Source: a virus. Taken from it: a stretch of 64,000 nucleotides of DNA. Positions 25,221-57,589 of the stretch are shown here, piece by piece. Within the stretch, counting starts at the first letter, position 1. Every line of letters starts with the position of its first letter. Position numbers and translations under genes: made by a program. The notes below the pieces were generated by a model. It ran no database searches. It saw only the letters and a program-made list of their open reading frames with translations, and had not been told where the DNA came from. Where the stretch lies: positions 96,001 to 160,000 of the IMG/VR virus record IMGVR_UViG_3300046744_000223, one strand, 5' to 3'.

Positions 25221-25271
25221 AGATAAATTGTAAAATTTTCTTGTGACACACGATTCGTTTCCAAAATGGAA

Positions 25272-25898: not shown

Positions 25899-25901
25899 AT
25901 C

Positions 25902-26399
25902 TTATATTCCTTTTAAGAAGTCCGGAGTGTCATCCTTTTCAAGACTATCTTCTTGTCTACGTTTTGCTTTAGTATCTATCTTATCGAAGATACCATAATC
26001 ATAGTTATATACCATAACAGTTGATATATTCTTTTCAACTAATGTACGATAACCACCCTTTAACTTCTTATTTCTAATCTCATTAAGGTAAAATTGTTTA
26101 GAGTTTACATCAAGATTTAATTTAGTCAAATCCAACTTTTTTACTTTCGAGGTTGAACTGATTACTTCATTTAATGAAGATGCCATTTTTAGCATTTGTG
26201 GTGGTGCGATGTGTTTTAAGTCTAAACAATGAAAGTATGTTTTAAACTTTGGCTGTAACACGAATACATAATAATCTCGAGCCTCACCAGATACTTTCTT
26301 GTATCTGATTTTAGCTACCATACCTTTCTCTAATTTTGACTTAGGTATACGAGTAGCGTCAGCAATTCGATTTCTATGCATTGTCGTGTAATCAGGCAT
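25902..26399 (-). CDS. Hypothetical basic protein
   Basis: ORF track; coupled to upstream gene. Confidence 0.65.
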   Translation of the reverse strand: MPDYTTMHRNRIADATRIPKSKLEKGMVAKIRYKKVSGEARDYYVFVLQPKFKTYFHCLDLKHIAPPQMLKMASSLNEVISSTSKVKKLDLTKLNLDVNSKQFYLNEIRNKKLKGGYRTLVEKNISTVMVYNYDYGIFDKIDTKAKRRQEDSLEKDDTPDFLKGI

Positions 26400-27718: not shown

Positions 27719-29124
27719 ACTGAATAAATCTCAAATCTTTTACGAGGTGTCCAATTTTCAAGACAACCATCAATTGCGTCAATAAACTTACCACCCATAT
27801 TTTCGGATGCCATCCCACTCTCACCTTGAACCCACTCATGTCCAATATGTCCCACGTATTCTAAGTGGTCTCTACCATCTTCAAGAGCGTTTCCTAACTT
27901 CTCAGCTACATCCATAAAGTCACATCTATCATCGAATATGTATGGTGTTTGTGGTGAACCTTGTAGTGACCTATTAGATGGCCATACAGGATAAACCCAA
28001 CTACCACGTCCTAATAATTCATACTTAGACCATTTTCTTCTATCATGTAGTGACCCAATCTCAACATAATCTTCAGCAGTTAGAATTTCACCTTCCAAAT
28101 CAAAACCACATTGGTCTTGAAGACCACCTGTTACGTTGACTATAATTGGTGTACCAGCTCTCAATGCTTCACAAGAGGCGAGTCCGAAACCTTCATTAGA
28201 AGCTATGTTTAGAATGATATCACCTGAATTGTAATATAGGTTTAAATCTTCGGTAGTGAATTTAGCATCAGTAAATTTATAATCACCATAGTGACCATTG
28301 TGTTTGATTACCTCATTCAAGTCAGTTCCATTGTCATCACTTCGTTGAGTATGGAAGAATAAACATACCTTCTTATCCTCATGTTGTTTTGCAAACTCAT
28401 TGAATGCAAGAACTACATCACCTGGTACTTTTCTACGAATATTTCTATTGTTCCATAGAACTACAAAGTCGTATTCGTTTAATCCAAATCTGTTTTTGAA
28501 TTCCACTAACTTTGCGTCATCCGATGGTAATGGTTTGAAGTGTTTGGATACTCCATGTGGGATATATTTGTATGCCCAATCGTCCTTCGCCATACCATAC
28601 TTCTCAAGAGTTCTCTTGTTTATACCATAGGTTTGTTTTGAGATTGACAATAACATATCACACGATGCATAAAATGGTGCATTCCACATTGGGTCTGGTA
28701 ATGAGTCCCAAATATTGTAATACATAATAGGAACGAACTCTCTTACTTCATGCTCCATATCGTACAACCACTTCCAAAAACGTGGGTCAGTGAAGTGTAA
28801 GATTGCATCAGGTTTCTCAATGTTAATAAGTTGCCTTAATATTTCAGGATTCCCATATCCGCTACTTGCGTATATTTTGAGTGATGCATCTTCTACACCA
28901 GTTTCCTTTTGTGTATCAGCTGAAACATCAAACATCTTACCCTCTTCGGGATGTTTTAGTGCTGCCCCAAGTTGAACCCAATCATACTTATGAATTGTTG
29001 AAAAAACAATCTCTTTTGATTGTGTTGCTATACCACTATGTAATCTGAGGTCATCCGAAAGAAGTAGAATCTTTTTCTTCTTCGGTTTAGTTGGGTCTAC
29101 TTTTCGTAGTTTTGGTAATTCCAT
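27715..29124 (-). CDS. Glycosyltransferase family 4
   Basis: IPHG, RNIRRK, NEGFGLASCEALRAGTPII. Confidence 0.88.
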   Translation of the reverse strand: MELPKLRKVDPTKPKKKKILLLSDDLRLHSGIATQSKEIVFSTIHKYDWVQLGAALKHPEEGKMFDVSADTQKETGVEDASLKIYASSGYGNPEILRQLINIEKPDAILHFTDPRFWKWLYDMEHEVREFVPIMYYNIWDSLPDPMWNAPFYASCDMLLSISKQTYGINKRTLEKYGMAKDDWAYKYIPHGVSKHFKPLPSDDAKLVEFKNRFGLNEYDFVVLWNNRNIRRKVPGDVVLAFNEFAKQHEDKKVCLFFHTQRSDDNGTDLNEVIKHNGHYGDYKFTDAKFTTEDLNLYYNSGDIILNIASNEGFGLASCEALRAGTPIIVNVTGGLQDQCGFDLEGEILTAEDYVEIGSLHDRRKWSKYELLGRGSWVYPVWPSNRSLQGSPQTPYIFDDRCDFMDVAEKLGNALEDGRDHLEYVGHIGHEWVQGESGMASENMGGKFIDAIDGCLENWTPRKRFEIYSV

Positions 29125-29180
29125 TCGTAACTATTTCCTTTTTATTTAGTTATAAATATACAAAATATATTTATTAAATC

Positions 29181-31016
29181 CTAATTTTTAAAATACATCA
29201 TATCGTTGATTACTAATATATCAACATCAGACTCATCAAATAATTTCATTGCATCTTCGGGCGTTTCCACAATAGGTTCACCTTTTACATTCAGTGAAGT
29301 ATTTAGTACAACTGGCACACCAGTTATGTCCTTAAATTTAGAAATCAAATCGTAAAATATAGGGTTATGGTCTCTTGTTAAAGTCTGAACACGTGATGTA
29401 TTGTCTATATGAACTGCTGATGGTATTTCTTGTGGCTTTCTACATGGTACAGTATGTAACATAAATGGTGACTCAAAATCCATATTGAACCACTCCTCCT
29501 TATCTTCGGTTAACACTACTGGCGCAAATGGTCTAAACCATTCTCTGAATTTAACTCTTGAGTTTAGAATATCCTTCATCTCTTTATTACGAGGGTCACT
29601 TATAAAAGAACGATTACCCAATGCACGTGGACCTACTTCAGAGTGACCTTGATACCAACACACAATTTTACCATCAGCAATATTTTGAGCAACTACATCC
29701 AAATCTAATGGAACTGCATTTGTGTCAGTTTCAGGTTGGTGGTCATATGTAACACCTAAATAAGCAAGTTCATTTGTAGTGTAGTTAACACGTTTACCAC
29801 CTAAATTAAAGTGATAGTAAAACAATGCCGAACCAGCTGGTATCCCATCATCACCACACGCTGGGAAAAAGTGTATATTCTTAAATTTTGTTTCTTTTAA
29901 TATCTTATAATTTGCGTTACAATTTAAAAATGTACCACCGGCTAAACACAAATTACCATCGTTGAAATTTTTAGTATCTTCATATAATTCATTGATATAC
30001 TTAATAAGAGCACGTTCTAATAAATATTGAATACTTGCAGCAATATCCATGACTTCTTGAGAATCTGATTCTTCTTTTGAATACACTGTTTGGTATATTC
30101 TATTTATAAACTGATAACCTGGTTCTTTATTTACGTACTCTTTACGTGCTGTACTTATGAATGGGTATCTACCACTGATTTCTGAAAATAACCAATCACT
30201 ATATCGGTGATATTCAGTACTAATTTGATTAAATGGGAGACACCACTTTTCCCACTGCTCCATGGTCTTACCATTTACATTACCGAATGAAGATAATCCC
30301 ATTAATGTACCTGCTTTTAATGTTCCCGGCCCTAACCCACAAAACTCAGTAGCTACATCATAGAAGTTCCCCAACATAAATTCAGGAGATTTAAAAGATT
30401 GTAGTATACTACCATTACCAACCATTGAGGTACTACAATTTTTTGGAGTATGCATCGAAGCGTCGGCCGTAAATACAGCTGCCCTTGGAAATGGTGATGT
30501 ATAAAATGCAGCTGCAGCATGGGCAGTATGATGTCTTACAAAGCAACCATTAATTGGTCGGGTGTACCCCTCTATATCAATTATCAATGGAAATGATTCA
30601 CTATGTTGTATCACTTCAGGCCCAAATGGAGGGTCGATGTTGTCTATAAATTCCGGCAGAGATATCCCAAGCCCATCAACATATTCTGGTTTGTATGGAA
30701 ACTCATCCAAGTGGTTGAGTATTCTCGTGTCTTGTCGTTGTGCGCCAAATGTATTAAGTGGATAAACGGAATTGGTTGGGCTGTATAGTTTTATCCAATT
30801 ACAATTATTATAGTTCCAAAATGCCATTGTGATACAATCTATATCATCAATAGTCATTTCGTTTACTTGTAGAAAGTGGTTAAAGAACTCTCTACTTAAT
30901 ACTTCATCTTTCTTTACCCTACTGTATCTTTCAACGCTTAATGATGATACTAATTTGCCATTACGTACTAACGATAATGATGCATCATGGCCGGTGTGCA
31001 TTCCTATTATATTCAT
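29181..31016 (-). CDS. Carbamoyltransferase (NodU/CmcH/TobZ family)
   Basis: GHDAS, ERYSRVK, HHTAHA, LMGL, LAGG..LN, GDDG, EVGPRALGNRS, KFREWFRPFAP, LNTSLN. Confidence 0.92.
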   Translation of the reverse strand: MNIIGMHTGHDASLSLVRNGKLVSSLSVERYSRVKKDEVLSREFFNHFLQVNEMTIDDIDCITMAFWNYNNCNWIKLYSPTNSVYPLNTFGAQRQDTRILNHLDEFPYKPEYVDGLGISLPEFIDNIDPPFGPEVIQHSESFPLIIDIEGYTRPINGCFVRHHTAHAAAAFYTSPFPRAAVFTADASMHTPKNCSTSMVGNGSILQSFKSPEFMLGNFYDVATEFCGLGPGTLKAGTLMGLSSFGNVNGKTMEQWEKWCLPFNQISTEYHRYSDWLFSEISGRYPFISTARKEYVNKEPGYQFINRIYQTVYSKEESDSQEVMDIAASIQYLLERALIKYINELYEDTKNFNDGNLCLAGGTFLNCNANYKILKETKFKNIHFFPACGDDGIPAGSALFYYHFNLGGKRVNYTTNELAYLGVTYDHQPETDTNAVPLDLDVVAQNIADGKIVCWYQGHSEVGPRALGNRSFISDPRNKEMKDILNSRVKFREWFRPFAPVVLTEDKEEWFNMDFESPFMLHTVPCRKPQEIPSAVHIDNTSRVQTLTRDHNPIFYDLISKFKDITGVPVVLNTSLNVKGEPIVETPEDAMKLFDESDVDILVINDMMYFKN

Positions 31017-31408
31017 TGTATAAATTTAGCAGTTTTACCATTACGACTTAATACTCGTTTAAAATGGTTGAATTCATTTTTTTTAATTTCCCCAAAGAAG
31101 TATAACTTATCTGAACCTCTGACTACACAATCATATTGATGTAAAGGCTGAGTTGGGTGATATGGCTTACCATAATATTCAGATTCCATGCCACTATATA
31201 ATGACATTATAGTATGTGCTGGATTATACTCTATATACTTAACACCTAATTCTAATGAGAACTTACGTACCCATTTTTCTATACCATCAGTGTTTCCACG
31301 TGTTACTAGTATTAATTCTTCTCCAAATTTTTGTTTTAGATTCCAAACGAGTTCTTTTACTTCACCCCTATTCTCATACGTTGGACTCCCCAGCAGTGCT
31401 ATTCTCAT
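31013..31408 (-). CDS. SLOG/YspA-like (DUF2493-like) protein
   Basis: MRIALLGS.TY.N, LVTRG..DG motif; likely start MRIALL at 31408. Confidence 0.6.
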   Translation of the reverse strand: MRIALLGSPTYENRGEVKELVWNLKQKFGEELILVTRGNTDGIEKWVRKFSLELGVKYIEYNPAHTIMSLYSGMESEYYGKPYHPTQPLHQYDCVVRGSDKLYFFGEIKKNEFNHFKRVLSRNGKTAKFIQ

Positions 31409-31904
31409 ATTTTTTGAGTCTTTTTTGAACCTTCCTCCAATACTTCTTGGTTTGTTTTTTTTGTAATCCCTTCGGACCACCATTCCAACACCTAGCGATT
31501 TTTTCATATGAACTTGTTTCGTGATAATAATTTGCAACTATGTTAAACATTTGAATAGATTTATCTCTACTCCATCGGTCTTCTAATGTAAATATGTAAT
31601 CTGAACCTTTTAAATCCAAAATTCGGTTAACTTCTTTTAACATTATTGGTCTAATTTGAAGAACACCAACAGCATCTTCTTTTTTACAATATGCAGACGT
31701 GTCACCACGACTTTCTACCCAAATGATTGCTTCTACTAAATCGTTTAGGTTTCTTAACGAAACGGGTGCTAATTGTACATTTGGGGGTGTTACTTCGATT
31801 TGGTTAATTTCTTTTAAAGGAATATTAATTAAAGATTCCTTTTTTTTAATCATGTAGGTAGATGAAATTAATAAAATAGCAGGTACTAATAGTAACTTTC
31901 TCAT
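31374..31904 (-). CDS. Lytic transglycosylase-like (lysozyme fold) with N-terminal anchor
   Basis: AIIWVESRG, AVGVLQI, ARCWNGG. Confidence 0.8.
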   Translation of the reverse strand: MRKLLLVPAILLISSTYMIKKKESLINIPLKEINQIEVTPPNVQLAPVSLRNLNDLVEAIIWVESRGDTSAYCKKEDAVGVLQIRPIMLKEVNRILDLKGSDYIFTLEDRWSRDKSIQMFNIVANYYHETSSYEKIARCWNGGPKGLQKKQTKKYWRKVQKRLKKYENSTAGESNV

Positions 31905-32903: not shown

Positions 32904-33067
32904 GATTGTGACTCTACACCTGCTTGATAAGCAAGTCTGAGACCATATCCGATGAGGATTCCACCAAGAAACGACAATAGGACTGAGTTGTAGGTATTAG
33001 AAAACCATATACCAAACACACTCATCCATATTGCGTGACCATACTTGGTCAGTTTTACTTTGCCCAT
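32900..33067 (-). CDS. Small membrane protein (55 aa)
   Basis: Manual translation MGKVKLTKYGHAIWMSVFGIWFSNTYNSVLLSFLGGILIGYGLRLAYQAGVESQS; fills gap. Confidence 0.55.
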   Translation of the reverse strand: MGKVKLTKYGHAIWMSVFGIWFSNTYNSVLLSFLGGILIGYGLRLAYQAGVESQS

Positions 33068-33465
33068 TTTCCGTTTTGGACTAATTGAGCAATGATACCA
33101 TATACTGATAAATCTGCATAGGTATCTTGTAGTGATTCACCAACCTCATCGGGTTGACCTAATACTACGAGTTGTTTTAGTCTCTGAACCTTATCGTTCA
33201 TTCTGAACCACAATCCAGTTAGTGATAGTTTCACATCATCTTTTGTCTCTAAAGTAGTTCCAACTGAGATGTTACCTGGTCCGTAGTTTCGTTGCTTCTT
33301 ACAAAAGGTTTCGTATTGTTCCCACATGATTCTTTTGTACTCTTCCATCATTTCAGGATAAGTATCCTCACAAAATTCTATTGCGGTCATCTCACCATAT
33401 ATGGGTCTTTCTTCTTCGTTAACCCACTCAACTTTAGTCTTTGCTTCTTTTATTATTTCAGCCAT
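33055..33465 (-). CDS. DUF1599-like nucleotide-modification-associated protein
   Basis: KKQRNYG, RMNDKVQRL, ESLQDT..DL..YGII. Confidence 0.75.
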   Translation of the reverse strand: MAEIIKEAKTKVEWVNEEERPIYGEMTAIEFCEDTYPEMMEEYKRIMWEQYETFCKKQRNYGPGNISVGTTLETKDDVKLSLTGLWFRMNDKVQRLKQLVVLGQPDEVGESLQDTYADLSVYGIIAQLVQNGKWAK

Positions 33466-33893
33466 TTTTTTATGTCTTTTTTATCTACACCAAACTTTTG
33501 AATAATCTCAATTACTTCATCTTTTGATAAAATTTCAAGATAATCCTTAACTTCACGTTCTGATACTTCGAAGTATCGTGTCAAGTAACTCAATACCTTA
33601 TCATTATACTTGTCACCACCCTTTGCTTTTATATACTTGTCGAATGACTTTTTCTTAGGTAAGACATCCAAGTATAACTTGTATACATCTTTCGGTGAGA
33701 GTTGGCCAACGGTATATTGTTGTAACTCATTGACCAACTCAAGAAGACCCATATTCATAGATAGAAATCTATTTACCATATATGGTTCGAAACTCTTTTT
33801 GTCCATAACTGAAAGGGACTCCCAAGATGTTTTCTTCTCCTTTATTCCCGAAAGGTGTTGAAATAAGGTCTTAGCTTTCTTTGCTTCCGCCAT
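33453..33893 (-). CDS. Clamp loader small subunit (T4 gp62-like)
   Basis: FEPYMVNRFLS, L..YFEVS.RE..DYL.IL; context. Confidence 0.7.
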   Translation of the reverse strand: MAEAKKAKTLFQHLSGIKEKKTSWESLSVMDKKSFEPYMVNRFLSMNMGLLELVNELQQYTVGQLSPKDVYKLYLDVLPKKKSFDKYIKAKGGDKYNDKVLSYLTRYFEVSEREVKDYLEILSKDEVIEIIQKFGVDKKDIKKWLK

Positions 33894-34161
33894 CTTCAAA
33901 AAACTCTTTTGGAGTGAACTTTGGATGTACTGTCCCACATTCATTACAAATGACTACGGGAATGGGTAACATGGATGCTTGACCTGATGGTGACTGAACT
34001 GCTGGCACTTCCTTGTACATGGAAACTTCCGTAAAAAATATACCATCACAATTAGGACAAGTTACTGTTGGTAACTTGAATGGGTCTAATTGTATTTGCG
34101 GTGCTGTTTGTGCATTAGGTGGACCACCCATACTTACTACTTTACCTTTTTTCTTAGCCAT
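33871..34161 (-). CDS. Zinc-ribbon protein
   Basis: CPNC...CNECG. Confidence 0.7.
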   Translation of the reverse strand: MAKKKGKVVSMGGPPNAQTAPQIQLDPFKLPTVTCPNCDGIFFTEVSMYKEVPAVQSPSGQASMLPIPVVICNECGTVHPKFTPKEFFEDGGSKES

Positions 34162-34164
34162 AAC

Positions 34165-34335
34165 TTACTTGTTTTCTTCTACCGAAGCCTTACGATACTC
34201 AGTAACTAATTTCTTCAACTCACCAATTGCTTTTCTAGCTTGGGTAGCAGATTTCTTGGTTGTTCCGTTGTGAGACTCCGTGAAGTCTGCAAACAACTCA
34301 GTCATTTGCTCGAATAATTCGTTTGAATTTGCCAT
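34165..34335 (-). CDS. Histone H1-like (Hc1-type) small DNA-binding protein
   Basis: Manual translation 56 aa ...KKSATQARKAIGELKKLVTEYRKASVEENK, like Bacteroidota Hc1-family proteins. Confidence 0.7.
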   Translation of the reverse strand: MANSNELFEQMTELFADFTESHNGTTKKSATQARKAIGELKKLVTEYRKASVEENK

Positions 34336-34338
34336 AAT

Positions 34339-35259
34339 TTACTTTCCTATTGTTATTAATATATTTAACATCATCGCCATTACGTTGATTTCCTTATCAA
34401 CTACCATTGCGTCTTTGTACTGACCATCTGCGATGTTTAAGATAGTCTGACCCACTTTACCACTTGCGTAGTTATCTACCTCGTCATAAAGAGAACGATA
34501 CAATGGTGTAAAATCCTTTAATTTTGAATCATTGATGATTTGTCTGATTTCCGTGAATTGTTCTTTGATGTCACCACTCTTTTGTAAAACCTTAATTACA
34601 TTATCGGTGTAATTAGCTTGTACAGTAGATGTGGTATCAATCTTTAACTCACCCTTGACAACTTGACGTTGTGCTGCGTTCAGTACTCTACGAATATCAG
34701 GATATCCACTATTCACCAACACAGCAAGGTCTTCGTTGTTAAACGTAACACTTTCTTCATTTAAGATTTGGTGTAAACGTTTAGCTACTTCCTTCTTTGA
34801 TGGAGGTGCGATAGCAAATGTCTGACATCTTGATTGGATAGGGTCAATGACCTTCTCCACGTAATTACACGTTAATATGAATCGTGTTGATTTACTGAAA
34901 GTCTCCATTAAGTTACGGAGTGCTGCTTGTGCGTTTGGTGTCAAATAATCAGACTCATCTAAGATTACAACTTTCCACTTACGGAATCCCATAGATGATG
35001 CGAACCCACGAATCTTATCACGAACTGCATCAACCGAGTTTTCATCCGAAGCGTTGATGTACATAACATCACAATCAATTTGGTTTGTAATGATTTTAGC
35101 GAGAGTGGTTTTACCAGTACCTGCTACTCCATAAAGTAATAGATGTGGTACATCATCATTCTCGATGTAAATCTTTACCTTCTCAAGGATATGGTCGTTA
35201 CCTACATAACCTTCTAATGTGTCTGGTCGATACTTCTCAACCCATAGTGAATTACTCAT
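34339..35259 (-). CDS. Clamp loader AAA+ subunit (RFC/gp44-like)
   Basis: WVEKYRP, GVAGTGKT, NASD, LDESD, SRC. Confidence 0.92.
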   Translation of the reverse strand: MSNSLWVEKYRPDTLEGYVGNDHILEKVKIYIENDDVPHLLLYGVAGTGKTTLAKIITNQIDCDVMYINASDENSVDAVRDKIRGFASSMGFRKWKVVILDESDYLTPNAQAALRNLMETFSKSTRFILTCNYVEKVIDPIQSRCQTFAIAPPSKKEVAKRLHQILNEESVTFNNEDLAVLVNSGYPDIRRVLNAAQRQVVKGELKIDTTSTVQANYTDNVIKVLQKSGDIKEQFTEIRQIINDSKLKDFTPLYRSLYDEVDNYASGKVGQTILNIADGQYKDAMVVDKEINVMAMMLNILITIGK

Positions 35260-36446
35260 CGTCCTACTTCTTTTAAGTATTGTTTTTTTGCTTCTTCCCA
35301 AGACATACCAATGATGTCAAGATAAAATAATGGTTCTGGTTTAATACGACCCTCATCAAATAGTTTAGAGTATCGTTTAATAGCCTTCTTCTTCCACCAC
35401 CTCATAGTGTAATCATCACCTTCCTCAAACTTCTTCTTTAGTTTCAATTCACTTTCGTCAATCTCATTACGAAGAAACTCATTTCCATTATCATACATCA
35501 TAGCGAAGTATACACCTCGTTTGAATCCATGCATATAATGACTTTGTTTAATACCCAATTCTTTGAATATCATTGATAGAATGCGTTGCTTTACACCTGA
35601 TACAGGTCCAGCAATCCCATCTTTCTGAGTTGTGTGTCTAGCATACTCATCTGGCTGGTTTTCTTTTAACCATTGATGCCATACATCATAAACTGAATCA
35701 TCTGGCTTGGTAGCAACTTTACCAGCTGACTCACCCAATGTTTTGAAATGTGGAATACCATTATATTGGGAGTGGATACCATATAGTGAAGTAGTACCTA
35801 CTGCAATAAGTTCTTGTCCGTACTTTTCTTTCCAATGTTCACGAACGACTGGAGATGTAGTCATACAGGCTACTAACTTACCACCTAAGAAGTTATATCC
35901 TAATGGTTGAGTACACACAATAGTACTTGCTATTGTAGTGTGATTCAATCTACCATCTTGGAATTTATTCTCCTTAGTCCATCCTATATAGTTATCCCTA
36001 ACTCCCAATGAAGTGACATCAGAACCCAAAGAAACCAACCCCAACATCTTACCACTTACTCGGTCTTTAATGTACATCTTTACATTACGACCTGGATTAG
36101 CAGTGAATGACATTGTATGGATTAACTTACGGATTTCAGTCCAACGAGTGGATTCTTTGGAGTCAGTTACAATCTCAACGTATGGGTCAAGGTCCTCAAT
36201 CTCTTTGATTGTTTGGTCCTTGTTCGTAATGTCAGTAGGTGACCATAGTTGGTCAATATACTGAGCCATTGCGGCTTTCCGTTTCATTGAAGTTGGTAAG
36301 TCTGAATTCCACTCATCCCACTTTTTGTAAAGCGTCTGCTCTTCTACTGACATTGATGAAAGGTAGTCCATATTCTCAATGAACTTTTCTTTCTCAACAT
36401 TATAGTCAAACACCGGCTTCGTTGGTTCTGTGTCCCAAAACTGCAT
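35256..36446 (-). CDS. DUF4338 / Druantia DruA-like protein
   Basis: PGR, LGVRDNYIGW, PLGYNFLGGKL, TTSLYG..SQYN motifs. Confidence 0.7.
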   Translation of the reverse strand: MQFWDTEPTKPVFDYNVEKEKFIENMDYLSSMSVEEQTLYKKWDEWNSDLPTSMKRKAAMAQYIDQLWSPTDITNKDQTIKEIEDLDPYVEIVTDSKESTRWTEIRKLIHTMSFTANPGRNVKMYIKDRVSGKMLGLVSLGSDVTSLGVRDNYIGWTKENKFQDGRLNHTTIASTIVCTQPLGYNFLGGKLVACMTTSPVVREHWKEKYGQELIAVGTTSLYGIHSQYNGIPHFKTLGESAGKVATKPDDSVYDVWHQWLKENQPDEYARHTTQKDGIAGPVSGVKQRILSMIFKELGIKQSHYMHGFKRGVYFAMMYDNGNEFLRNEIDESELKLKKKFEEGDDYTMRWWKKKAIKRYSKLFDEGRIKPEPLFYLDIIGMSWEEAKKQYLKEVGR

Positions 36447-36447
36447 A

Positions 36448-37143
36448 TTACTTAATCTCTACTAAATAGTAATTAGACTTGAATCCATCATGCTCAAATG
36501 CAACGTGAGCAAGACCTTGTGGTGAAATCTTCAAAGAAGATGACTTAGCACCACGATTAGCACTTAGAATCTCTTTCAAGTACTTAGCTGAGAATGAAAT
36601 TGGTTCAACATCACTTTCACACGTACACTCGACATTCATAGAGATTCGGTTAGAGTTGATTTTAGAGTAACCTAAAATTACCTCACCTTTGTTTTCTTTA
36701 CACGTAAATGTAAACGTGTCTGAATCAGACATAGCACCCTTAGCTTTTGTAAAGGTAGCGATGAAATCACCATCCATAGTTACATTAGATGTAAATGGTG
36801 GAAGTTGTTTTAGTTCAGGTACTACTGGAATAACTGAGAGGTCAGCCAACATATAGTTTACTGAAGTTTTACCATCAGAGAATACCAATGCAGCCGTACC
36901 TTCGGATACATCAACTTGACTACCCAATACACCAAGTAGACCTTTTAATTGAGATGTGGTATAAACCCCATACTCTCCATTTGGAAAACCAGTCTCTTCA
37001 CTCTCAACAGTACCCAATAGAGTTTTGTCATCAGAGATGAATGAAACTTGCATTCCGGCGTCAGTAGAATTAACTTTTACTGACTCCACTTCACCACCCA
37101 AGTTGTAACGAGAGATGAAACCTTCAATAGAATTCTTTTTCAT
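36448..37143 (-). CDS. DNA sliding clamp (gp45/PCNA-like)
   Basis: Size, FSAKYL, NYYLV end; between PolB and clamp loader. Confidence 0.75.
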   Translation of the reverse strand: MKKNSIEGFISRYNLGGEVESVKVNSTDAGMQVSFISDDKTLLGTVESEETGFPNGEYGVYTTSQLKGLLGVLGSQVDVSEGTAALVFSDGKTSVNYMLADLSVIPVVPELKQLPPFTSNVTMDGDFIATFTKAKGAMSDSDTFTFTCKENKGEVILGYSKINSNRISMNVECTCESDVEPISFSAKYLKEILSANRGAKSSSLKISPQGLAHVAFEHDGFKSNYYLVEIK

Positions 37144-37167
37144 TGTTATTATTTGTTATTTATTATA

Positions 37168-37199
37168 CTAATATACGAAATTAAATTGGACTATCCAAA
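37168..37199 (-). promoter_or_regulatory. TTTG-N20-TATATTAG promoter
   Basis: Exact motif upstream of clamp gene. Confidence 0.75.
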
Positions 37200-39716
37200 T
37201 TAAAATGAGAAAAATTGTGCTGCGTGAGCAAGGTTAGGATTTGGCTTCTCCCAATTCATTGCTTTATAGAAATCATCTAACTTATTGTTCAACTCCTTCT
37301 CCCAAATCAAATCATAGTCAATGTATTGTTCAATGAATGCGTTTATCTCAGGTGGGTCGGAGTGACCAGTAAATCCGGTAGTCTGAAGTCCAAGTGGATT
37401 CTTCTTTAGATATACCCATTTAATCTTATCACCATCCTTCATTGGTTCATATTTGTAAGGAGCATCAAACTTCTTCAATAGTTGGTTGTAAGTAAGTGCA
37501 GCCTTTACGTGAGCAGGTGTCCCCTTCATGAACTCACCAAGTGCTTGGTCCTTAAACCTATACTTAGACATATCCTTTACAGCTGAGTTCTTTGCGATAT
37601 TCACAAATGGTTGGTCAGTCATCCCATCCTTATAGTTTAGGATTTTATCGTCCAACTTCTTCTTGTCCTCATCCTTTAGGATATCCATCAGTACAGTAGA
37701 CATTACCTCTTTGAAGTATACTGGAAATGATGAACGTTTTACATCTAACCCCTTCACATCCAACTTATCACAATCAACGGTATTATCATTTATAATCCAT
37801 TGAGCGTATCTCTTCTTCGATACCCAAAAACCACCCTTAGCGATAGTCTCTTGTTTGATGTCGAATCGGTGAGTGTCTACGTTGAACAATTTAAATGCCA
37901 TCATATCATACACCTTGTTGATATGTTCCTCAACCTCTTTAGCGACTGATAGAATTGCTGGAATCATTTGTTCATCCGAGTTCTCATCGATTTCAGGATT
38001 ACGAGCTTTTACAAGTGGTGCTGCCTGATAGAATACGGAATCCGTATCAGTATACACATTATAATCTGCTTCCTTACCAATGTTCTTTGTGTAGTATTGG
38101 TTAGCAATCAACTCGGTAGTCTTAATTACAGTCTGGCCAGTGATTGTAGTTGCCTCAGCGTTATCCACATCATAGAATCTGAATGATGGTAACCCAAGTA
38201 CTCCATATAAGGAGTTCAACATAATCTTTTGTACCAACTGACGTTGAGAGTAGAACTTATACAACTCATCATTACCTTCCTTACCATACTTCTTCATAAG
38301 GTCTTTGTATTCCACGCGTTTGTCAAACCAAACATTAAGAATCTCAGGAATCACACCTACCTTATCTCTACGATATAGAACACCATTAGCAGCAACTGAG
38401 TAGTTTGACTTTTCGATAAAGTTCATAAACTTATCCTTAGCTAATGGAGGAAACTCATTACCATCGTCATCGATAATTGAATATGTTTCAATCTTACCCT
38501 TCATATGGTCTTCAGCCACATAGTTCTTTAACTTACCAATCTTTGTCTCTGGCGAGATATTGATGGTCATAATGATAGATGGATATAGTGATGTTAAATC
38601 CAAATCATATACCCATTTGTAAAGACCAGGTTTAGGTTCTTTTACATATGCGCCGGTAAACTTACCTTCAGCCTCAGTTCCATCATCATTACGTGCTCTT
38701 CGTCTTGGTTTGTTTGGAGCAACACGACCACTCCTACGTAGGAATGTTAACATTGCACCCTCTAACCACTTTGATGAGAATAAGAAGTCTTCATAGAATA
38801 CGTGACCTGCGTGACATATTGCTCTAGCCAAATCAATGAATTGAAGTTTCTTATCCATATCAACAACCAATTCAACATCCACCAAGTTATACTCAATAAA
38901 CGTTTCCAAGTCATCTCTGAACAATTGGTCAAGGTTTCCCTCATACTCAATCTTACCTCTACCCAATTCTAACTTAGCGATAGTGTCTAATCGGTAGTTT
39001 GGATATTCAGTATATGTAAAGTTCTTAAATAAAGCGATGTAGTCCAATGCAGACACACCAGCAATCAAATAACGATTACGATACTTATTCCAATGAACTT
39101 TACCAATAGGTGATAGTTGGTTTGCCATAGACTCACCCAACACTCTCTTCATTCGGTTGTATAGATACGTGACATCAAAGAAGTCAATGTTCCAACCAGT
39201 AATAATAGTTGGATTGATTTCTTTCCATTTGTTTAGGAACGCAACTAACATACCCTCTTCAGTATCAAACGATTCTACCGTAGCACCTTTGATGGTCTTA
39301 TTAATCTTCTCACCTTTATTTACAACATATACAAAGTAATCACCACTCACCGAATCATGACCTGCGACTGAAGTCATAGCATTCTTAGCTTCGGTTGTAT
39401 CAGGTAGACCACTATTCATCTCTACCTCAATATCAAAGGTAAGTACAGTATGTCCATTCGATACCTCATCTGAATCACCATATTGGTCAATCAGAAAACG
39501 TGTCATCTCGTTTACATCACTTTCATATAATTCAAGACCATCGTCTTGCTTCCAAAAGTTGATTTTCTTTAACCTCTCTCCATGAATAGAAGTATGAGCA
39601 CCATTCCCATCTCTAACGTAAGCATATCTACGGTATTTAGATGTGAAGTAACCTTTCTCATCATCCCAACAATGGATGAGGTTGTTTTCTTTTTCGAAGT
39701 ATACATTTTGATACAT
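37200..39716 (-). CDS. Family B DNA polymerase
   Basis: FDIE, GWN..FFD, YNLVD exonuclease motifs; DLTSLYPS, KIMLNSLYG, YTDTDS. Confidence 0.95.
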   Translation of the reverse strand: MYQNVYFEKENNLIHCWDDEKGYFTSKYRRYAYVRDGNGAHTSIHGERLKKINFWKQDDGLELYESDVNEMTRFLIDQYGDSDEVSNGHTVLTFDIEVEMNSGLPDTTEAKNAMTSVAGHDSVSGDYFVYVVNKGEKINKTIKGATVESFDTEEGMLVAFLNKWKEINPTIITGWNIDFFDVTYLYNRMKRVLGESMANQLSPIGKVHWNKYRNRYLIAGVSALDYIALFKNFTYTEYPNYRLDTIAKLELGRGKIEYEGNLDQLFRDDLETFIEYNLVDVELVVDMDKKLQFIDLARAICHAGHVFYEDFLFSSKWLEGAMLTFLRRSGRVAPNKPRRRARNDDGTEAEGKFTGAYVKEPKPGLYKWVYDLDLTSLYPSIIMTINISPETKIGKLKNYVAEDHMKGKIETYSIIDDDGNEFPPLAKDKFMNFIEKSNYSVAANGVLYRRDKVGVIPEILNVWFDKRVEYKDLMKKYGKEGNDELYKFYSQRQLVQKIMLNSLYGVLGLPSFRFYDVDNAEATTITGQTVIKTTELIANQYYTKNIGKEADYNVYTDTDSVFYQAAPLVKARNPEIDENSDEQMIPAILSVAKEVEEHINKVYDMMAFKLFNVDTHRFDIKQETIAKGGFWVSKKRYAQWIINDNTVDCDKLDVKGLDVKRSSFPVYFKEVMSTVLMDILKDEDKKKLDDKILNYKDGMTDQPFVNIAKNSAVKDMSKYRFKDQALGEFMKGTPAHVKAALTYNQLLKKFDAPYKYEPMKDGDKIKWVYLKKNPLGLQTTGFTGHSDPPEINAFIEQYIDYDLIWEKELNNKLDDFYKAMNWEKPNPNLAHAAQFFSF

Positions 39717-40834
39717 TAATTAAAGTCTTTTCTAGCCATATTAATAAAGTTGTTCTCTACATCCCAACTTTTAAGTTGAGATTCCCATAGTAAAGACTCC
39801 GCGATATGAGTTACATCAGGACGTTCGATTTCACCATCCAATAACTTAACAACCATTTCTTTAAATTCATCTTTACCATTATAAAGTAATGGATACTCTT
39901 CACCAACCATTTCGGGATAACAAAAATCGTTTGGAAGTAAGTAAGGTACACCTCGACTTAACCCATCAGTAGCCGACATTGACCAAGCCGAATATCCTTG
40001 GAATGTACCTACGCCAAAATGTGCTTTAGACATTTGATTCATATACACATCTCTATCAGCGTGTCCAATATACTTGGTATATGATTTACCCATATCTTTT
40101 AATGAAGTCCATACTTGGAAGTCTTTACGAGTTTCCCATAGCTCATCCATCGCCTCGAAGAACCACTCAGCCCCAGTATACACTCCCCATCTATGATTAA
40201 ATAGAATAGTTTTAGGTTCATATGTGGATGTTGGTGTAGCTGAATCACATCCCAAATACCAAGGTTGGATAATTTCCTCTAATTTATCAGTAATATGTGG
40301 TTGGAATGTTTCTGATGCTCGTTTAATAACTAAATCCTTTACCCATTGTGAGTTTACACCACAAACTTTCATTTGTAACATACCTTTGACATTTTTCCAA
40401 AATGAGTTAACGTCTCTAGCTCCATTGTCTTTGATTTCCCACCAATGACAATACCCAATAATAGGTTGTGATTTATTATATATTCTTGATACTTTGAATT
40501 CGTTTGTCCATTCCGGCAAATGTGACCATATGAGATTAAACTCACCATTGTATTTTTCAATCAGTCTATTGAAAAACTTATGTGGATAGTCTACTCTCAT
40601 TTTAGGTGGAAAGCAATCTAAACTATCCATTGATACCAACTCAACATTTGGATGTTCAAATTTATTGATGATACCAGGATGATTATCAAAATCAGGATAT
40701 GGTAGAATCCACTCCCACTCTTTTCCGATTTCAGTATTCTCTATAAAGGACTTGAATACCAATAGGAACGAGTCCCTATTGATGTCCTTAACAGACCCGA
40801 AATTTGTATAATTTGGTATTACTAAAACTCTCAT
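39716..40834 (-). CDS. GT-B glycosyltransferase (candidate DNA base glycosyltransferase)
   Basis: LFNHR, WSMSATDGL..GVPYLLP...YPE GT-B motifs; coupled to PolB, away from glycan island. Confidence 0.65.
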   Translation of the reverse strand: MRVLVIPNYTNFGSVKDINRDSFLLVFKSFIENTEIGKEWEWILPYPDFDNHPGIINKFEHPNVELVSMDSLDCFPPKMRVDYPHKFFNRLIEKYNGEFNLIWSHLPEWTNEFKVSRIYNKSQPIIGYCHWWEIKDNGARDVNSFWKNVKGMLQMKVCGVNSQWVKDLVIKRASETFQPHITDKLEEIIQPWYLGCDSATPTSTYEPKTILFNHRWGVYTGAEWFFEAMDELWETRKDFQVWTSLKDMGKSYTKYIGHADRDVYMNQMSKAHFGVGTFQGYSAWSMSATDGLSRGVPYLLPNDFCYPEMVGEEYPLLYNGKDEFKEMVVKLLDGEIERPDVTHIAESLLWESQLKSWDVENNFINMARKDFN

Positions 40835-40835
40835 A

Positions 40836-42632
40836 TTATGCTCCGAAATTTAAACCCGTTTCAAGGATTTGGTAAATTATATTGATTGATGAAGTGACAA
40901 CTCGGGTTTCAATTAAACTCAAATTAGTAGACATCTTCTCGTTATGGTCAGCGAGCATCTCCCAATACTCATTTGGTGTACAATTCCAATTCTTGAATTT
41001 CTGATTACCTGTTAGATTATCATCAGTCATACCCAAAAACCCATCTTTGGCATCACCACCGGTTGAGTTGGGTGATTTGTGTAACCATTGAACACCCTCA
41101 CCAGTCTTAAAGTTCACAACACTTAACACATCAGTAGACAGTGGGTATAGTTTCAATCGTTGAGGCATCCCCTCCGACTCAAGGAAGGATGTGATTCGTG
41201 TCAGAGATTGGTCACGATATTCAGCTTGAAGGTTACGGTCTTTTGAACCAGCCTTCAGGTTAGATTCAACATTCTGAAAGACATACTTGAATATCTTTTC
41301 AAACCTACTATTTGCGTTCGTTGATGAGTGAATCGAAGATTGTGTTCCAAAATACTCCCACACGTTAATTTGATTACCCTCATGGTCAACATTACCATTC
41401 AGCAATTTAGAATACTCATTGACTACTTTGGATGTTAACTTTGATAAACCAACCGACTTCTTGGTTCGTTTGAAGTATAAAACAAAGGTGAATAACAAAA
41501 TTCCGGTATGATACTTTTTAATGTGAAGGTCTTCCATTGCTTTGATTCTCTTCCCATTTAGATGGTTGGTTACAATTTTGTTAATAGTAGTCGTTATTGT
41601 CTTCCAATCATCCGATTCAAATACCTTTACATATACACTCTCATACCACGTGGTTAACTCACCATAACTAATTTCCGAAATAACACGTTTGAACATAGAT
41701 TGCCAGTATTCGGTTTCATTACCATCGGATGTTCCGTTTTCAAAACTAACGACCATATCGTTAAACTTTTTAAACTCATCAATGGTATCACAATAGTGAG
41801 AACCGATGTACGCCTGAATGATGGGAATCATCTTTGCTATTTTGTGTTTCTCTGCGTATTTTTTATGACCAGACATCAACCCACCTCGTGTAAATTCAGC
41901 AGCACCGGCTTTATTAGTGAAATATTCTAAAAGTTGGTCACCACAAAAATAAGTTTTGTACTCATCAGTTCGTTTCAAAGGAGTCATATAATAGTTGTAA
42001 GCCAACCAAGGATGTGGTTGTCGGTTACAATTAATCATGTCCTTCTCAAATTGTTTTACAGTATGTAGATTAACAACAAATGCAATTTCACTATTGTCAA
42101 AGAATTCACTAAATTCATCAGACCCATCTACCAAATCTTTTAAAGAATACTTAATATCAAGTTCTTGTGGTGTCTTGGTATTGAAATAGTCCATAATCAT
42201 ATTGATTACACACTTGTCATCCTCATTCGTGATGTCATAATATTTAATAATGTCTTCACACATTATTAACCATTCATTACCTGTTAAAACACGACTATCA
42301 TAGTATTTACCAAACAATAAGGAAAACAATGTACCATTGTCACGAATATAACCAACTTCACCTACCTTATCCTTTAAGACAGATACCAATAACTGACCTT
42401 TCTCTGAAATACCACTTATATAACGAATTAAATGATGTAGTTTACCCCAATACTTTTTGACATTATCCAAATCCTCATCTCGGTTAGCCTCATTATCAAG
42501 AGCACCACCCTCAATCAACTCACGACACATTTGAAATGTGACAACACCCATTGTCTTAACAAAAATAGCAGGCTTTGATTTGTTCTTACCAACCCACACA
42601 AGTGCTTCTTTTAAATTCTTCATATCTTTCAT
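40836..42632 (-). CDS. Large hypothetical protein, possibly divergent GmrSD-like (DUF262 + HNH)
   Basis: IRDNG and F...INCNRQPHPW N-terminal segments; C-terminal HKSPNSTGG...N HNH-like segment. Confidence 0.4.
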   Translation of the reverse strand: MKDMKNLKEALVWVGKNKSKPAIFVKTMGVVTFQMCRELIEGGALDNEANRDEDLDNVKKYWGKLHHLIRYISGISEKGQLLVSVLKDKVGEVGYIRDNGTLFSLLFGKYYDSRVLTGNEWLIMCEDIIKYYDITNEDDKCVINMIMDYFNTKTPQELDIKYSLKDLVDGSDEFSEFFDNSEIAFVVNLHTVKQFEKDMINCNRQPHPWLAYNYYMTPLKRTDEYKTYFCGDQLLEYFTNKAGAAEFTRGGLMSGHKKYAEKHKIAKMIPIIQAYIGSHYCDTIDEFKKFNDMVVSFENGTSDGNETEYWQSMFKRVISEISYGELTTWYESVYVKVFESDDWKTITTTINKIVTNHLNGKRIKAMEDLHIKKYHTGILLFTFVLYFKRTKKSVGLSKLTSKVVNEYSKLLNGNVDHEGNQINVWEYFGTQSSIHSSTNANSRFEKIFKYVFQNVESNLKAGSKDRNLQAEYRDQSLTRITSFLESEGMPQRLKLYPLSTDVLSVVNFKTGEGVQWLHKSPNSTGGDAKDGFLGMTDDNLTGNQKFKNWNCTPNEYWEMLADHNEKMSTNLSLIETRVVTSSINIIYQILETGLNFGA

Positions 42633-42647
42633 TTCTTATTTCTTATA

Positions 42648-42702
42648 CTAATATACAACGATTTTCTTAACTTACCAAATTATAATGTTAAGAAATCGTT
42701 AA
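42648..42702 (-). promoter_or_regulatory. TTTG-N20-TATATTAG promoter plus TTAACG-N5-TTAACA box
   Basis: Promoter 42648-42679; repeat 42686-42702. Confidence 0.75.
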
Positions 42703-42704
42703 AC

Positions 42705-43499
42705 TTACCAAAAACTTACTTTATTTTCTGGCTCGAATGTTTCGTGTCTGACTACCTCTGATAGGAACTCACTTGCGTCTTTAGGATATGGGCTGACTTT
42801 GTGTTTGAGTTGTTTAGTCAACTTACGTTTCTCTGATTTGTTCTGACCCAATACTTGGATGTATCGGTGTTTAGCAGACTCCTTCTTTCTCCAAAACTCT
42901 TTTATGTTCTCCTTACCCATTTGAGTTTTTAGATGGTCTAAATTATGAGACCCCCAACGTGAGAATACAGTCCGTGAGTGTATCCACTTATGTGGGTTAT
43001 CTTGGATTGATATAGAATAGTTTGGCATCAGTTGAATATCACGACAATCTTGGTATAACCAATTTGTTGCTTGGTAGATACCACCTAAATGTAATTGTTC
43101 GGGGTCAGCGTAACTGAGTAACATCTTGATATTAGGAGCATTCTCCTTAATCCATTGGAATGATTGACCCATAGCGTATGACTCGATATTAGACCCATAC
43201 CCATCGTGTATAAACAATCGTGTCAACTCCAAACATTGGTCTTTCTCTAACCCATCAATAACTGACTTGATTGCTGACCTACCTACTGGATACCCATATA
43301 CTAAACATCCAATTAGTTGTTCTGAATTACCTAATACGTCTTTCTTATTAGTTTCATAGAATATCCCAAGAGCGTATCTACACATCGTCCAAGCATGAGA
43401 ATAGTGGTAAGTAACAATCATCTCTTTTGCGGTTGCCTTACCAATCTCACGAATTGTAACACGTGACGTGTCTACGTATATTTTATTTGCTTCTTTCAA
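42705..43499 (-). CDS. Mom-family adenine-modification acyltransferase (GNAT fold)
   Basis: YHYS, ELTRL, NIES, SYADP..H.G.IYQATNW.Y, KHRY. Confidence 0.85.
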   Translation of the reverse strand: MKEANKIYVDTSRVTIREIGKATAKEMIVTYHYSHAWTMCRYALGIFYETNKKDVLGNSEQLIGCLVYGYPVGRSAIKSVIDGLEKDQCLELTRLFIHDGYGSNIESYAMGQSFQWIKENAPNIKMLLSYADPEQLHLGGIYQATNWLYQDCRDIQLMPNYSISIQDNPHKWIHSRTVFSRWGSHNLDHLKTQMGKENIKEFWRKKESAKHRYIQVLGQNKSEKRKLTKQLKHKVSPYPKDASEFLSEVVRHETFEPENKVSFW

Positions 43500-44244
43500 T
43501 TGGGTCTAATTTGTATATCTCTTCTTTAAATTCCTCATTTTCCGTTGGATATGGTAATGATGGGTATTTCAATGACTTCAATATACGACTTTTTTTTGAC
43601 TTATCCAAAATGTAAACGTATCTATGTTTCCTCAACTCCTTTTTAATCCAAAATGGCGTTGATGTCATTTCTTGTATTTTGGTAGGGTTGTTAGTACCAA
43701 ACTTTACGAACGATGTACGTGAATGAGTCCATTCACCACCATCTTCCCATCTAAATAACCACGAATCGTTTGGTCTGATACGATTACCTTGATAAATCCA
43801 ATTTGTAGACATATAAATTGTTCCCTTATGGCCTACTTTAGGGTCGGAGTATGAGATAAGTGCTTTAATATGGGGAGTATTTTTGCGTAACCACTTGAAG
43901 GTCTGACCTACAAACCAACTTTCTATATTACACCCATATCCATCAAATACAAATAATCTGGTAAGTTCAAATACCTCAGTTCGGTCAATATGTTCAGAAA
44001 TAGAAGCGCCAGAATGCCTACCTATGGGGTCGCCATACGTAGCCACTCCGACTAACTTCTCATTTACACCACTAAAAAACTGATGTTCTTCATCGGATTC
44101 ATAAAACAAACCCAATGCATAAGATACTTTTGTCCAAATTCCAGCATAATGGTGATTTACCACTATGTCTTTTGCAACTGATTTTGAAATCGGTCTTACT
44201 GAAAATTTAGATGGATTAAAATATATCTTACCTTCTACTTTCAT
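43483..44244 (-). CDS. Mom-family adenine-modification acyltransferase (second paralog)
   Basis: HHY, ELTRL, NIES, SYSDP..H.GTIY..TNW.Y.G, KHRY. Confidence 0.85.
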   Translation of the reverse strand: MKVEGKIYFNPSKFSVRPISKSVAKDIVVNHHYAGIWTKVSYALGLFYESDEEHQFFSGVNEKLVGVATYGDPIGRHSGASISEHIDRTEVFELTRLFVFDGYGCNIESWFVGQTFKWLRKNTPHIKALISYSDPKVGHKGTIYMSTNWIYQGNRIRPNDSWLFRWEDGGEWTHSRTSFVKFGTNNPTKIQEMTSTPFWIKKELRKHRYVYILDKSKKSRILKSLKYPSLPYPTENEEFKEEIYKLDPIERSK

Positions 44245-44444
44245 TGATAATCATTAAATTCTCCAAAAAGAATATGTGTCCAAGTTTCTCCCCTTACTAT
44301 TCTACGAATGTTAGCGGGTGATACACCATTGTTTCGTGCTAAAACTCTTGTATTTCTATGACCAACAGCCCACAACTGGCGAATAGACTTTACTTGGTCC
44401 TCCGTAAGTTTATGTTGTGGATGTGATTCACCTCGTAGTGCCAT
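44241..44444 (-). CDS. Stand-alone HTH DNA-binding protein (HNH endonuclease C-terminal type)
   Basis: GESHPQHKLTEDQV..IR...LAR..GVS...I..IV.G.TW.HI. Confidence 0.7.
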   Translation of the reverse strand: MALRGESHPQHKLTEDQVKSIRQLWAVGHRNTRVLARNNGVSPANIRRIVRGETWTHILFGEFNDYQ

Positions 44445-44445
44445 C

Positions 44446-44865
44446 TTAAACTTTCTCATTAAAAGGAAGTTCAATTTGAGTAGTATCGGCTAAGAATTGA
44501 GATAGATTTGGTTTTGAAAAATTAGGCCCTTTTAATACTTTACCATCCTCACGATAAATAGGTTTACCATCCTCACCTAACTTTGACATATTAGAGCGAT
44601 GGACCTCATCAAAGACATCCTCGATGATATCACCCATACCATGAGCAACCATAGTACCTAATAAGATATATAGTTGGTCAGCAAGTGCATCTGTAACTTC
44701 CACAATGTCATCGTTATTACAAGCCTCTAAATACTCCACCAACTCTTCTTTACCCAAACGATACCTTAAATAGTAATCATCTGGCTCAATTAATGTAGGT
44801 GTTGTATTCCGTGTTTGGTCATATATACTTTGGAAGTCCCAAAGTTGTTGTAACTGCTTTTTCAT
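44446..44865 (-). CDS. MazG-like NTP pyrophosphohydrolase
   Basis: EELVEY, DALADQLY, EVHRSNMSK, REDGKVLKG. Confidence 0.85.
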   Translation of the reverse strand: MKKQLQQLWDFQSIYDQTRNTTPTLIEPDDYYLRYRLGKEELVEYLEACNNDDIVEVTDALADQLYILLGTMVAHGMGDIIEDVFDEVHRSNMSKLGEDGKPIYREDGKVLKGPNFSKPNLSQFLADTTQIELPFNEKV

Positions 44866-44869
44866 ATTA

Positions 44870-44901
44870 CTAATATACAAAAATTATTTTATTTTTCCAA
44901 A
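44870..44901 (-). promoter_or_regulatory. TTTG-N20-TATATTAG promoter
   Basis: Exact motif 4 nt upstream of MazG-like ATG. Confidence 0.7.
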
Positions 44902-45467
44902 ATTATTTCACCATTTTCTACACCACTTGGCGCAGATGCCCATAGGTTTATTGCGATTGCGCTACGATTACCCTTTGTAACTTCAGTAACCCTATGTTTG
45001 TATTGGCCGGCTGGAAATATGACTAACCTATTATGTTTAGCTTTAATACGTTCCGGTTCGTTATCGTCACCACCACTAAATATTTCCAAATACCCACCTT
45101 CAATATCCATTGGGACTGGATAGTAAACTGTACCAATAATTGGTGTTACTAATTTACCTTCAGTATTCCATAGATTCTCGTCTTTGTCAAAATGCATATT
45201 TAGTTCATGCAGTTTATCATCGTCAGCCGAGTATTGGCCTGTCCAATACTCAAAACCTTCCAATTGGATTGAATTATATCTTGGAAAATCCCATGGTGAG
45301 TTTTTAATCCAAAGTTCTTCTATCAACCTTTGTTTAAGAGTTGATGCCTTGGAATTCCAAGGACCACCCCACCACATATATTGACCATTATTCTCAAAAA
45401 ACTGAGTGTCTTCTTGGAGTTCCTTTAAAAGGGACTCGTCTTTGATAAAGTCATCAACGATTATCAT
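44889..45467 (-). CDS. 2OG-Fe(II) oxygenase
   Basis: HFD...GG.L...NRLVIF...H.V...R.....N.W. Confidence 0.8.
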   Translation of the reverse strand: MIIVDDFIKDESLLKELQEDTQFFENNGQYMWWGGPWNSKASTLKQRLIEELWIKNSPWDFPRYNSIQLEGFEYWTGQYSADDDKLHELNMHFDKDENLWNTEGKLVTPIIGTVYYPVPMDIEGGYLEIFSGGDDNEPERIKAKHNRLVIFPAGQYKHRVTEVTKGNRSAIAINLWASAPSGVENGEIILEK

Positions 45468-54056: not shown

Positions 54057-54066
54057 CCATATCTCC

Positions 54067-55920: not shown

Positions 55921-55932
55921 AAACATAAATAT

Positions 55933-57159: not shown

Positions 57160-57164
57160 AAAGA

Positions 57165-57367: not shown

Positions 57368-57370
57368 ATC

Positions 57371-57586: not shown

Positions 57587-57589
57587 ATC

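Follow-up and report, generated by a model that had tools for sequence, protein, structure and literature searches.

The 64,000-nucleotide stretch analysed here (the window) covers positions 96001-160000 of the 172,940-bp virus record IMGVR_UViG_3300046744_000223 of IMG/VR (label G000), which is about 90% complete. Between window positions 33055 and 45467, within the replication module, it holds a real Mom-type DNA modification set that is probably active. The set comprises two Mom-family paralogs, Mom-1 and Mom-2, and a GNAT protein of the DruA/DUF4338 family (DruA-like). They form a coherent set because only they travel together across related phages. The remaining genes, which an earlier sequence-only reading had joined with them into one hypermodification system, are neighbourhood. 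We favour, at about even confidence and by analogy with phage Mu, a tRNA-dependent glycyl modification of DNA by these three GNATs, with phage-supplied RNAs as the glycine donors.

Mom-1, Mom-2 and the DruA-like protein

The genes of the set and the replication genes between and beside them are, in window positions:

42705-43499, minus strand: Mom-1, Mom-family GNAT, 264 amino acids, TTG start (PF25680, E 1.4e-48)
43483-44244, minus strand: Mom-2, Mom-family GNAT paralog, 253 amino acids (PF25680, E 4.4e-43)
35256-36446, minus strand: DruA/DUF4338-family GNAT, 396 amino acids (PF14236, E 7.3e-24; PADLOC DruA, 1.7e-25)
36448-37143, minus strand: clamp, flanking the DruA-like gene
34339-35301, minus strand: AAA+ clamp loader, flanking the DruA-like gene
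37200-39716, minus strand: PolB, family B DNA polymerase, used as tree marker (PF00136, E 3.3e-42)

The window proteins were mapped onto IMG/VR relatives, and Mom and DruA were scored in 44 related phage records that hold the polymerase of this lineage. The DruA-like gene was present in 25/25 Mom-positive records and missing from 19/19 Mom-negative records. On the PolB tree, the Mom/DruA state requires at least 5 to 6 changes, and all five independent pairs agree. They occupy two different insertion sites, Mom upstream of PolB and DruA-like on the far side of the clamp, with PolB and the clamp in between. A close relative with a PolB about 82% identical (G030) is devoid of Mom-1, Mom-2 and DruA-like. 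DruA-like probably takes part in the same process as Mom, because gains and losses of its gene coincide with those of the Mom genes. This strict co-inheritance with true Mom paralogs is new. Together with a fold that resembles Mom, it upholds the link between DruA-like and Mom drawn in the sequence-only reading.

Both tandem Mom-family paralogs that had been read from the sequence match PF25680, with bit scores of 165.7 and 147.7 against a curated cut-off of 27.1. They are the only two matches in the whole genome and share 41% identity. The Mom-2 gene overlaps Mom-1 by 17 nt, and a small HTH gene overlaps the start of Mom-2. Orthologues of Mom-1 are present in every Mom-positive relative. Mom-1 matches Mu Mom (8bv8) at E 7e-9. 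In Mu, the product N6-carbamoylmethyl-adenine blocks restriction enzymes. Mu Mom acts post-replication on double-stranded DNA and moves glycine from Gly-tRNAGly onto the N6 of adenine; the adduct then rearranges to N6-carbamoylmethyl-adenine (PMC13219725). That Mom uses glycine from a charged tRNA on DNA was shown only in 2026 (PMC13219725). The residues H58, Y59, R111, S124, D149, Y159 and W181 are required for the activity of Mu Mom (PMC13219725), and all seven are kept in Mom-1, Mom-2 and their orthologues. A Mom-type adenine modification, as proposed before, is plausible because both paralogs keep most residues that Mu Mom needs.

Some relatives have a third, shorter Mom paralog of about 205-215 amino acids, encoded between clamp and PolB (L058:8941-9561 and L059:6455-7069, from G001 and G009). 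It also occurs in G034, G035 and G037, and not in this genome. It keeps H58, Y59, R111, S124, D149 and Y159 and is without W181.

Profile matches and coordinates confirmed that the DruA/DUF4338 gene is flanked by the clamp and clamp-loader genes. The PF14236 match has 84.9 bits against a cut-off of 27, and the PADLOC DruA match covers profile positions 88-370 of 407. DUF4338 was earlier described as a GNAT domain (PMC10853773). The AlphaFold2 model of the protein, with a predicted local distance difference test (pLDDT) value of 92.9, shows a GNAT core that spans residues 82-328. Among solved structures, Mu Mom (8bv8_A) matches the model best (Z 9.9, root-mean-square deviation 4.2, 184 residues aligned; VIA). 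Other GNATs reached Z values of at most 8.9, over alignments of about 150 residues. Independent published work has described a homologous cyanophage protein as similar to Mom in structure (PMC12801897). A complex prediction of DruA-like with Mom-1 and Mom-2 gave a score of 0.00, which counts neither for nor against binding.

A search for PF09369 (MZB/DUF1998), the DruE-type signature, had no match in the 173-kb genome; the same search worked in 8 control genomes. Judged by this missing signature, the gene encodes a DruA-family protein and is not part of a Druantia system. DruA-like genes have been reported in cyanophages (bioRxiv 10.1101/2025.08.05.668817). In the T4-like cyanophages S-SSM7, S-PRM1 and S-SCSM2R (L231, L232 and L233), a shorter DruA-like gene lies between the clamp-loader genes gp44 and gp62. 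The embedding of DruA-like genes in the clamp/clamp-loader operon thus recurs across distant phages.

tRNA-like RNAs with glycine identity elements and competing explanations

The genome encodes two RNAs outside the window, in a tRNA cluster:

G000:C1:70105-70176: tRNA-like RNA 1, 72 nt
G000:C1:70245-70316: tRNA-like RNA 2, 72 nt

Both ARAGORN and the Rfam tRNA model overlook them, the latter even at E up to 1. A loop-based pattern search found such RNAs in 27 IMG/VR contigs. The 17 distinct sequences are 98.9% paired, with compensatory changes in 11 of the 21 pairs; controls with slid partners reached a pairing of at most 55%. All four stems are supported by covariation, and the minimum-energy fold is a cloverleaf with an anticodon loop of 5 nt. 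Invariant across the 17 sequences are G1-C72, C2-G71, G3-C70, U73, C35 and C36, which are the identity set of glycyl-tRNA synthetase (PMC7826273). Positions 33 and 34 vary, with A33 in many copies and U or A at 34. A covarying pair at positions 32 and 38 (C-G or U-A) reduces the anticodon loop to 5 nt. The universal U8, G18-G19, T54-Psi55-C56 and A58 are replaced in one fixed way across the family, by A8, the D loop UAARAGAA and the T loop GGCRG. The RNAs should be glycine-chargeable yet unfit for the ribosome, since the glycine identity set is kept while the elbow residues and the 7-nt anticodon loop are lost.

A covariance model built from the 17 sequences was used to scan genomes. The RNA was detected in 9/9 near-complete genomes with Mom and DruA-like (G000, G001, G006, G010, G011, G020, G035, G037 and G057) and in G009, which is 70% complete. 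The model did not find it in either of the two complete genomes without Mom and DruA-like, G046 and Microcystis phage Mel-JY01. All remaining records are too fragmentary to cover the approximately 63 kb between enzyme and RNA loci, and the Mom-negative close relatives are fragments ending short of the tRNA cluster.

Two cultured pelagiphages also carry the RNA, an observation that is new. In Pelagibacter phage Mosig EXVC030M it lies at MT647606.1:7782-7852 (L229:14742-14812; 50 bits), and in Pelagibacter phage HTVC008M at NC_020484.1:91140-91210 (L230:13944-14014; 46 bits), where it is intergenic. Both phages have a full-length DruA-like gene and no Mom; the RNA therefore tracks DruA-like more than canonical Mom. 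The Mosig RNA is covered by a tiny annotated open reading frame, the 'hypothetical protein' Mosig_000011, which is probably mis-called. A one-to-one pairing of Moms with RNAs was ruled out: Mom copies number two or three and RNA copies one or two, with no correspondence.

In the favoured explanation, Mom-1 and Mom-2 would most likely transfer glycine from glycyl-tRNA to the N6 of adenine in double-stranded phage DNA, as their homology with Mu Mom suggests. DruA-like would probably act in the same process. It could perform a further aminoacyl or acyl transfer or, alternatively, the same chemistry on another base or in another sequence context. The glycine donor would probably be supplied by the phage in the form of the two 72-nt RNAs, charged yet kept off the ribosome. 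Their proposed role as private donors follows the analogy of the non-proteogenic tRNAGly that feeds staphylococcal Fem transferases. A wider version is unlikely and is offered as speculation: the DruA family, including Druantia DruA, would form a second branch of nucleic-acid modifiers that are Mom-like and depend on aminoacyl-tRNA, and T4-like marine phages would run it on private glycine carriers unfit for the ribosome. Here, with Mom, it would build an adduct larger than or different from N6-carbamoylmethyl-adenine, e.g., by adding a second glycyl or acyl group to the first.

Several observations weigh against the favoured explanation. The sign test on the co-inheritance gives p = 0.0625, the best value attainable with five pairs. 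R151, essential in Mu, is a glutamate in Mom-1 and a lysine in Mom-2; it is a methionine in the Polaribacter phage Mom and thus not a family-wide residue. The margin of Mom over other GNATs as a match of the DruA-like model is about 1 Z unit, nearly a tie by the standard of the tool, and a profile-profile comparison of DruA-like with Mom did not find sequence homology (probability 2.4%). Where GNATs bind the pyrophosphate of coenzyme A (CoA), DruA-like has, in our own reading, a QPxGxNxxGGK stretch. Because of this CoA-type stretch, its donor may be an acyl-CoA instead of a tRNA. Some 63 kb separate the RNAs, which sit in an ordinary tRNA cluster, from the enzyme genes. Within the lineage, their link to Mom and DruA-like rests on two negative complete genomes. 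The RNA was not found in Polaribacter phage P12002L, which has Mom. The RNA model also gave no match in the three cyanophages with a shorter DruA-like gene, for which it may be too narrow.

Part of this evidence fits a narrower explanation, which is possible, if rather unlikely. Only the Mom paralogs would modify DNA, using host Gly-tRNAGly. DruA-like would act on a different target, for instance a protein, a metabolite or a factor of host defence, and would be co-inherited because it and Mom both serve counter-defence. The RNAs could be, for example, decoys for toxins that attack Gly-tRNAGly, such as the GNAT toxin TacT, or for other tRNA-directed defences. TacT does act on Gly-tRNAGly (PMC13219725). 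Mu and P12002L possess Mom but neither DruA nor the RNA, and the CoA-type motif, the missing sequence homology to Mom and the distant location of the RNAs point the same way. Against this stand the perfect co-inheritance of Mom and DruA-like through at least five independent changes despite separate insertions, the rank of Mu Mom as the best structural match of DruA-like with most residues covered, and the RNA that accompanies DruA-like in the pelagiphages even without Mom.

It is very doubtful that the RNAs are odd but working translational tRNA-Gly(UCC), unrelated to the GNAT genes. They do lie among ordinary phage tRNA genes, some adjoining a tRNA-Gly(GCC), and a canonical tRNA-Gly(UCC) was not called in the regions scanned by ARAGORN. 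Such a function is hard to reconcile with the uniform replacement of U8, G18-G19, T54-Psi55 and A58 across the family, with the frequent A33 and the U or A at position 34 beside fixed C35 and C36, with the 32-38 covariation that shuts the loop to 5 nt, and with the failure of the Rfam tRNA model to match.

Neighbouring genes

The other genes of the region are, in window positions:

39716-40834, minus strand: GT-B (GT4-like) glycosyltransferase, 372 amino acids (fold search of the AlphaFold2 model)
40836-42632, minus strand: open reading frame of 598 amino acids between Mom-1 and GT-B, no family assigned, accessory gene
44241-44474, minus strand: small HTH protein (HTH77), 77 amino acids (phrog_517 HTH, E 3e-7)
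44446-44880, minus strand: MazG-like all-alpha nucleoside triphosphate pyrophosphatase (MazG/PRA-PH; PF01503, E 1.8e-14)
44889-45467, minus strand: 2-oxoglutarate-Fe(II) oxygenase (2OG-FeII_Oxy_3) of PKHD/prolyl-hydroxylase type (PF13640, E 5.5e-9)
33055-33465, minus strand: DUF1599-like protein (PF07659, E 3.3e-4; phrog_1485, 1.5e-10)

Profile and fold searches found every gene of the sequence-only reading in its place and on the minus strand, on which all window genes lie. Two more genes, the 598-amino-acid open reading frame and HTH77, had been absent from it. The MazG-like pyrophosphatase and the oxygenase have clear Pfam matches. A candidate DUF1599 gene is there as well; its Pfam match is weak and stays below the cut-off (21.4 vs 25 bits). 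The gene is a backbone gene of the lineage. G030 retains it together with HTH77, which abuts PolB there, and the oxygenase. Orthologues of HTH77 and of the DUF1599-like gene are found in the Mom-negative G030, G046 and G043. HTH77 was considered as a Com-like regulator of Mom and ruled out, as it is kept in Mom-negative relatives.

The GT-B gene is coupled to PolB as had been read: in the sequence TAATG, its stop codon overlaps the start codon of PolB. The sequence had no Pfam, PHROG or NCBIfam family match, only language-model look-alikes. The AlphaFold2 model (pLDDT 89) has a GT-B/GT4-like fold with two Rossmann domains, and its Foldseek matches are MshA, PimB' and BshA (E about 1e-11, template modelling score up to 0.75). 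G001 is without the gene, and the versions in G006 and G011 share only about 30% identity with it. Nothing links GT-B to Mom. It may belong with a downstream glycan island or act on another acceptor. In G030, the slot between clamp and clamp loader, the place of DruA-like, holds a gene 24% identical to the GT-B of the window (L143:16649-17524).

The glycan island is a 20-kb group of sugar-nucleotide and glycosyltransferase genes just downstream of the region (window 11485-31016). It encodes a NodU-like carbamoyltransferase, two GT4, several GT2 and two GT29-like sialyltransferase-type proteins. Two KdsA/DAHP-synthase-like proteins, two CMP-sugar cytidylyltransferases, a truncated UDP-glucose dehydrogenase, an epimerase, a transaldolase-like protein, a 2-hydroxyacid dehydrogenase and two methyltransferases complete it.

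The 598-amino-acid open reading frame had no Pfam, PHROG, NCBIfam, PADLOC or PDB-profile match. Its 43 homologue clusters are all hypothetical, and a protein atlas gave a weak DUF2828/TROVE lead (0.85) with a poor stored model. Among the mapped relatives it occurs only in G000 and G009 and is missing from G001. MazG is present at this locus only in G000 and G011. The protein matches 3nl9 and DR2231 in the PDB and resembles DR2231-type house-cleaning enzymes. The oxygenase has only the PF13640 match and weak PiuC/PKHD matches; it had no TET/JBP family match. The only ThyA homologue of the genome (G000:C1:74660-75517) passes the thymidylate synthase equivalog cut-offs (348.9 vs 325 and 339 vs 108). 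No hydroxymethyl-pyrimidine is expected, because this ThyA is a true thymidylate synthase. A T4/SPO1-type dCMP/dUMP hydroxymethylase derived from ThyA was thus not found in the genome.

The comparative data have already weakened the model of one pathway, in which all listed genes act in a replication-coupled sequence of Mom acylation, base hydroxylation by the oxygenase and glycosylation by GT-B, aided by MazG, DUF1599 and DruA. All these genes do exist, share one orientation and lie tightly together in about 12 kb of the replication module, GT-B is tied to PolB, and the sugar island lies close by; the pathway is nonetheless highly improbable, since GT-B and MazG come and go independently of Mom (G001 is without GT-B and the 598-amino-acid open reading frame, and MazG is confined to G000 and G011), and G030 is without Mom and DruA yet keeps the oxygenase, DUF1599 and HTH77. 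Hydroxylation followed by glycosylation is left unsupported by an oxygenase of PKHD and not TET/JBP type, a true ThyA and a GT-B that is independent of Mom. 'Replication-coupled' was drawn from gene position only, and Mu Mom acts after replication (PMC13219725).

The record encodes a T4-like replication set with a DnaB-type helicase, a FEN-type exonuclease, RecA, gp32, the family B polymerase, the clamp and the clamp loader, as well as ribonucleotide reductase and thioredoxin. The closest cultured polymerase is that of Mel-JY01, with 48.5% identity. A megablast search of the region against the phage collection gave no match. A 985-amino-acid protein (window 6944-9901) has a C-terminal type IX secretion (Por) sorting domain, which suggests a Bacteroidota host. 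An amidase-type lysin is encoded at window 9951-10859. Inside the clamp-loader operon, window 34165-34335 encodes a 56-amino-acid Hc1 (chlamydial histone H1-like) protein; its orthologues adjoin the ribonucleotide reductase small subunit in G006, G046 and G043. A 176-amino-acid protein with a weak lytic transglycosylase (SLT) domain (window 31374-31904) is encoded directly downstream of a PD-(D/E)XK nuclease gene. Consecutive large open reading frames of 619, 408, 618 and 910 amino acids at window 53670-63814 had no Pfam match.

Comparison with known systems

If the favoured explanation is true, abundant marine phages have built on the chemistry of Mom in three respects: they have several paralogs of the enzyme, a further DruA-family enzyme shaped like Mom, and donor RNAs that are dedicated to this use and bypass translation. 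It would give the first functional lead for DruA, a defence-system protein, define a new class of non-translational tRNA mimics and point to a novel DNA base in ocean viruses. The two cultured Pelagibacter phages with DruA-like gene and RNA make the idea directly testable.

The alpha- and beta-glucosyltransferases of T4 are GT-B enzymes that glucosylate hydroxymethylcytosine in DNA. The window shares with T4 a gene for a GT-B fold in a T4-like replication module. It differs by the true thymidylate synthase in place of a dCMP/dUMP hydroxymethylase, by a GT-B that best matches GT4 enzymes acting on small molecules and glycans, and by the lack of conservation of this GT-B with Mom.

DruA of type I Druantia (PF14236/DUF4338) is related to the phage protein by a significant full-domain match. 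Here, the gene is phage-encoded and embedded in the clamp/clamp-loader operon of a genome without the DruE-type signature.

The non-proteogenic tRNAGly of Staphylococcus aureus resemble the phage RNAs: they are tRNAs with glycine identity and altered D and T arms, kept from translation and used as aminoacyl donors for the GNAT-fold Fem/FmhB transferase (PMC7826273). Those RNAs are still recognisable tRNAs and act in cell-wall synthesis. The phage RNAs, in contrast, have a rewired elbow and anticodon loop and escape tRNA finders, and their presumed acceptor is DNA.

The closest known system is Mu Mom (PF25680; 8bv8). Mom-1 and Mom-2 clearly belong to its family and retain most of the catalytic residues, DruA-like has the Mom fold with Mom as its best solved match, and by analogy a glycyl group would be expected to pass from tRNA to the N6 of adenine. 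Mu has one gene, whereas this lineage has two or three paralogs that have diverged, do not conserve R151 and are in every case accompanied by a GNAT of the DruA family. The Mu mom gene belongs to a late, Com-controlled operon; here the genes stand among early replication genes. Mu uses the tRNAGly of its host, whereas this phage seems to come with glycine-specific tRNA mimics of its own.

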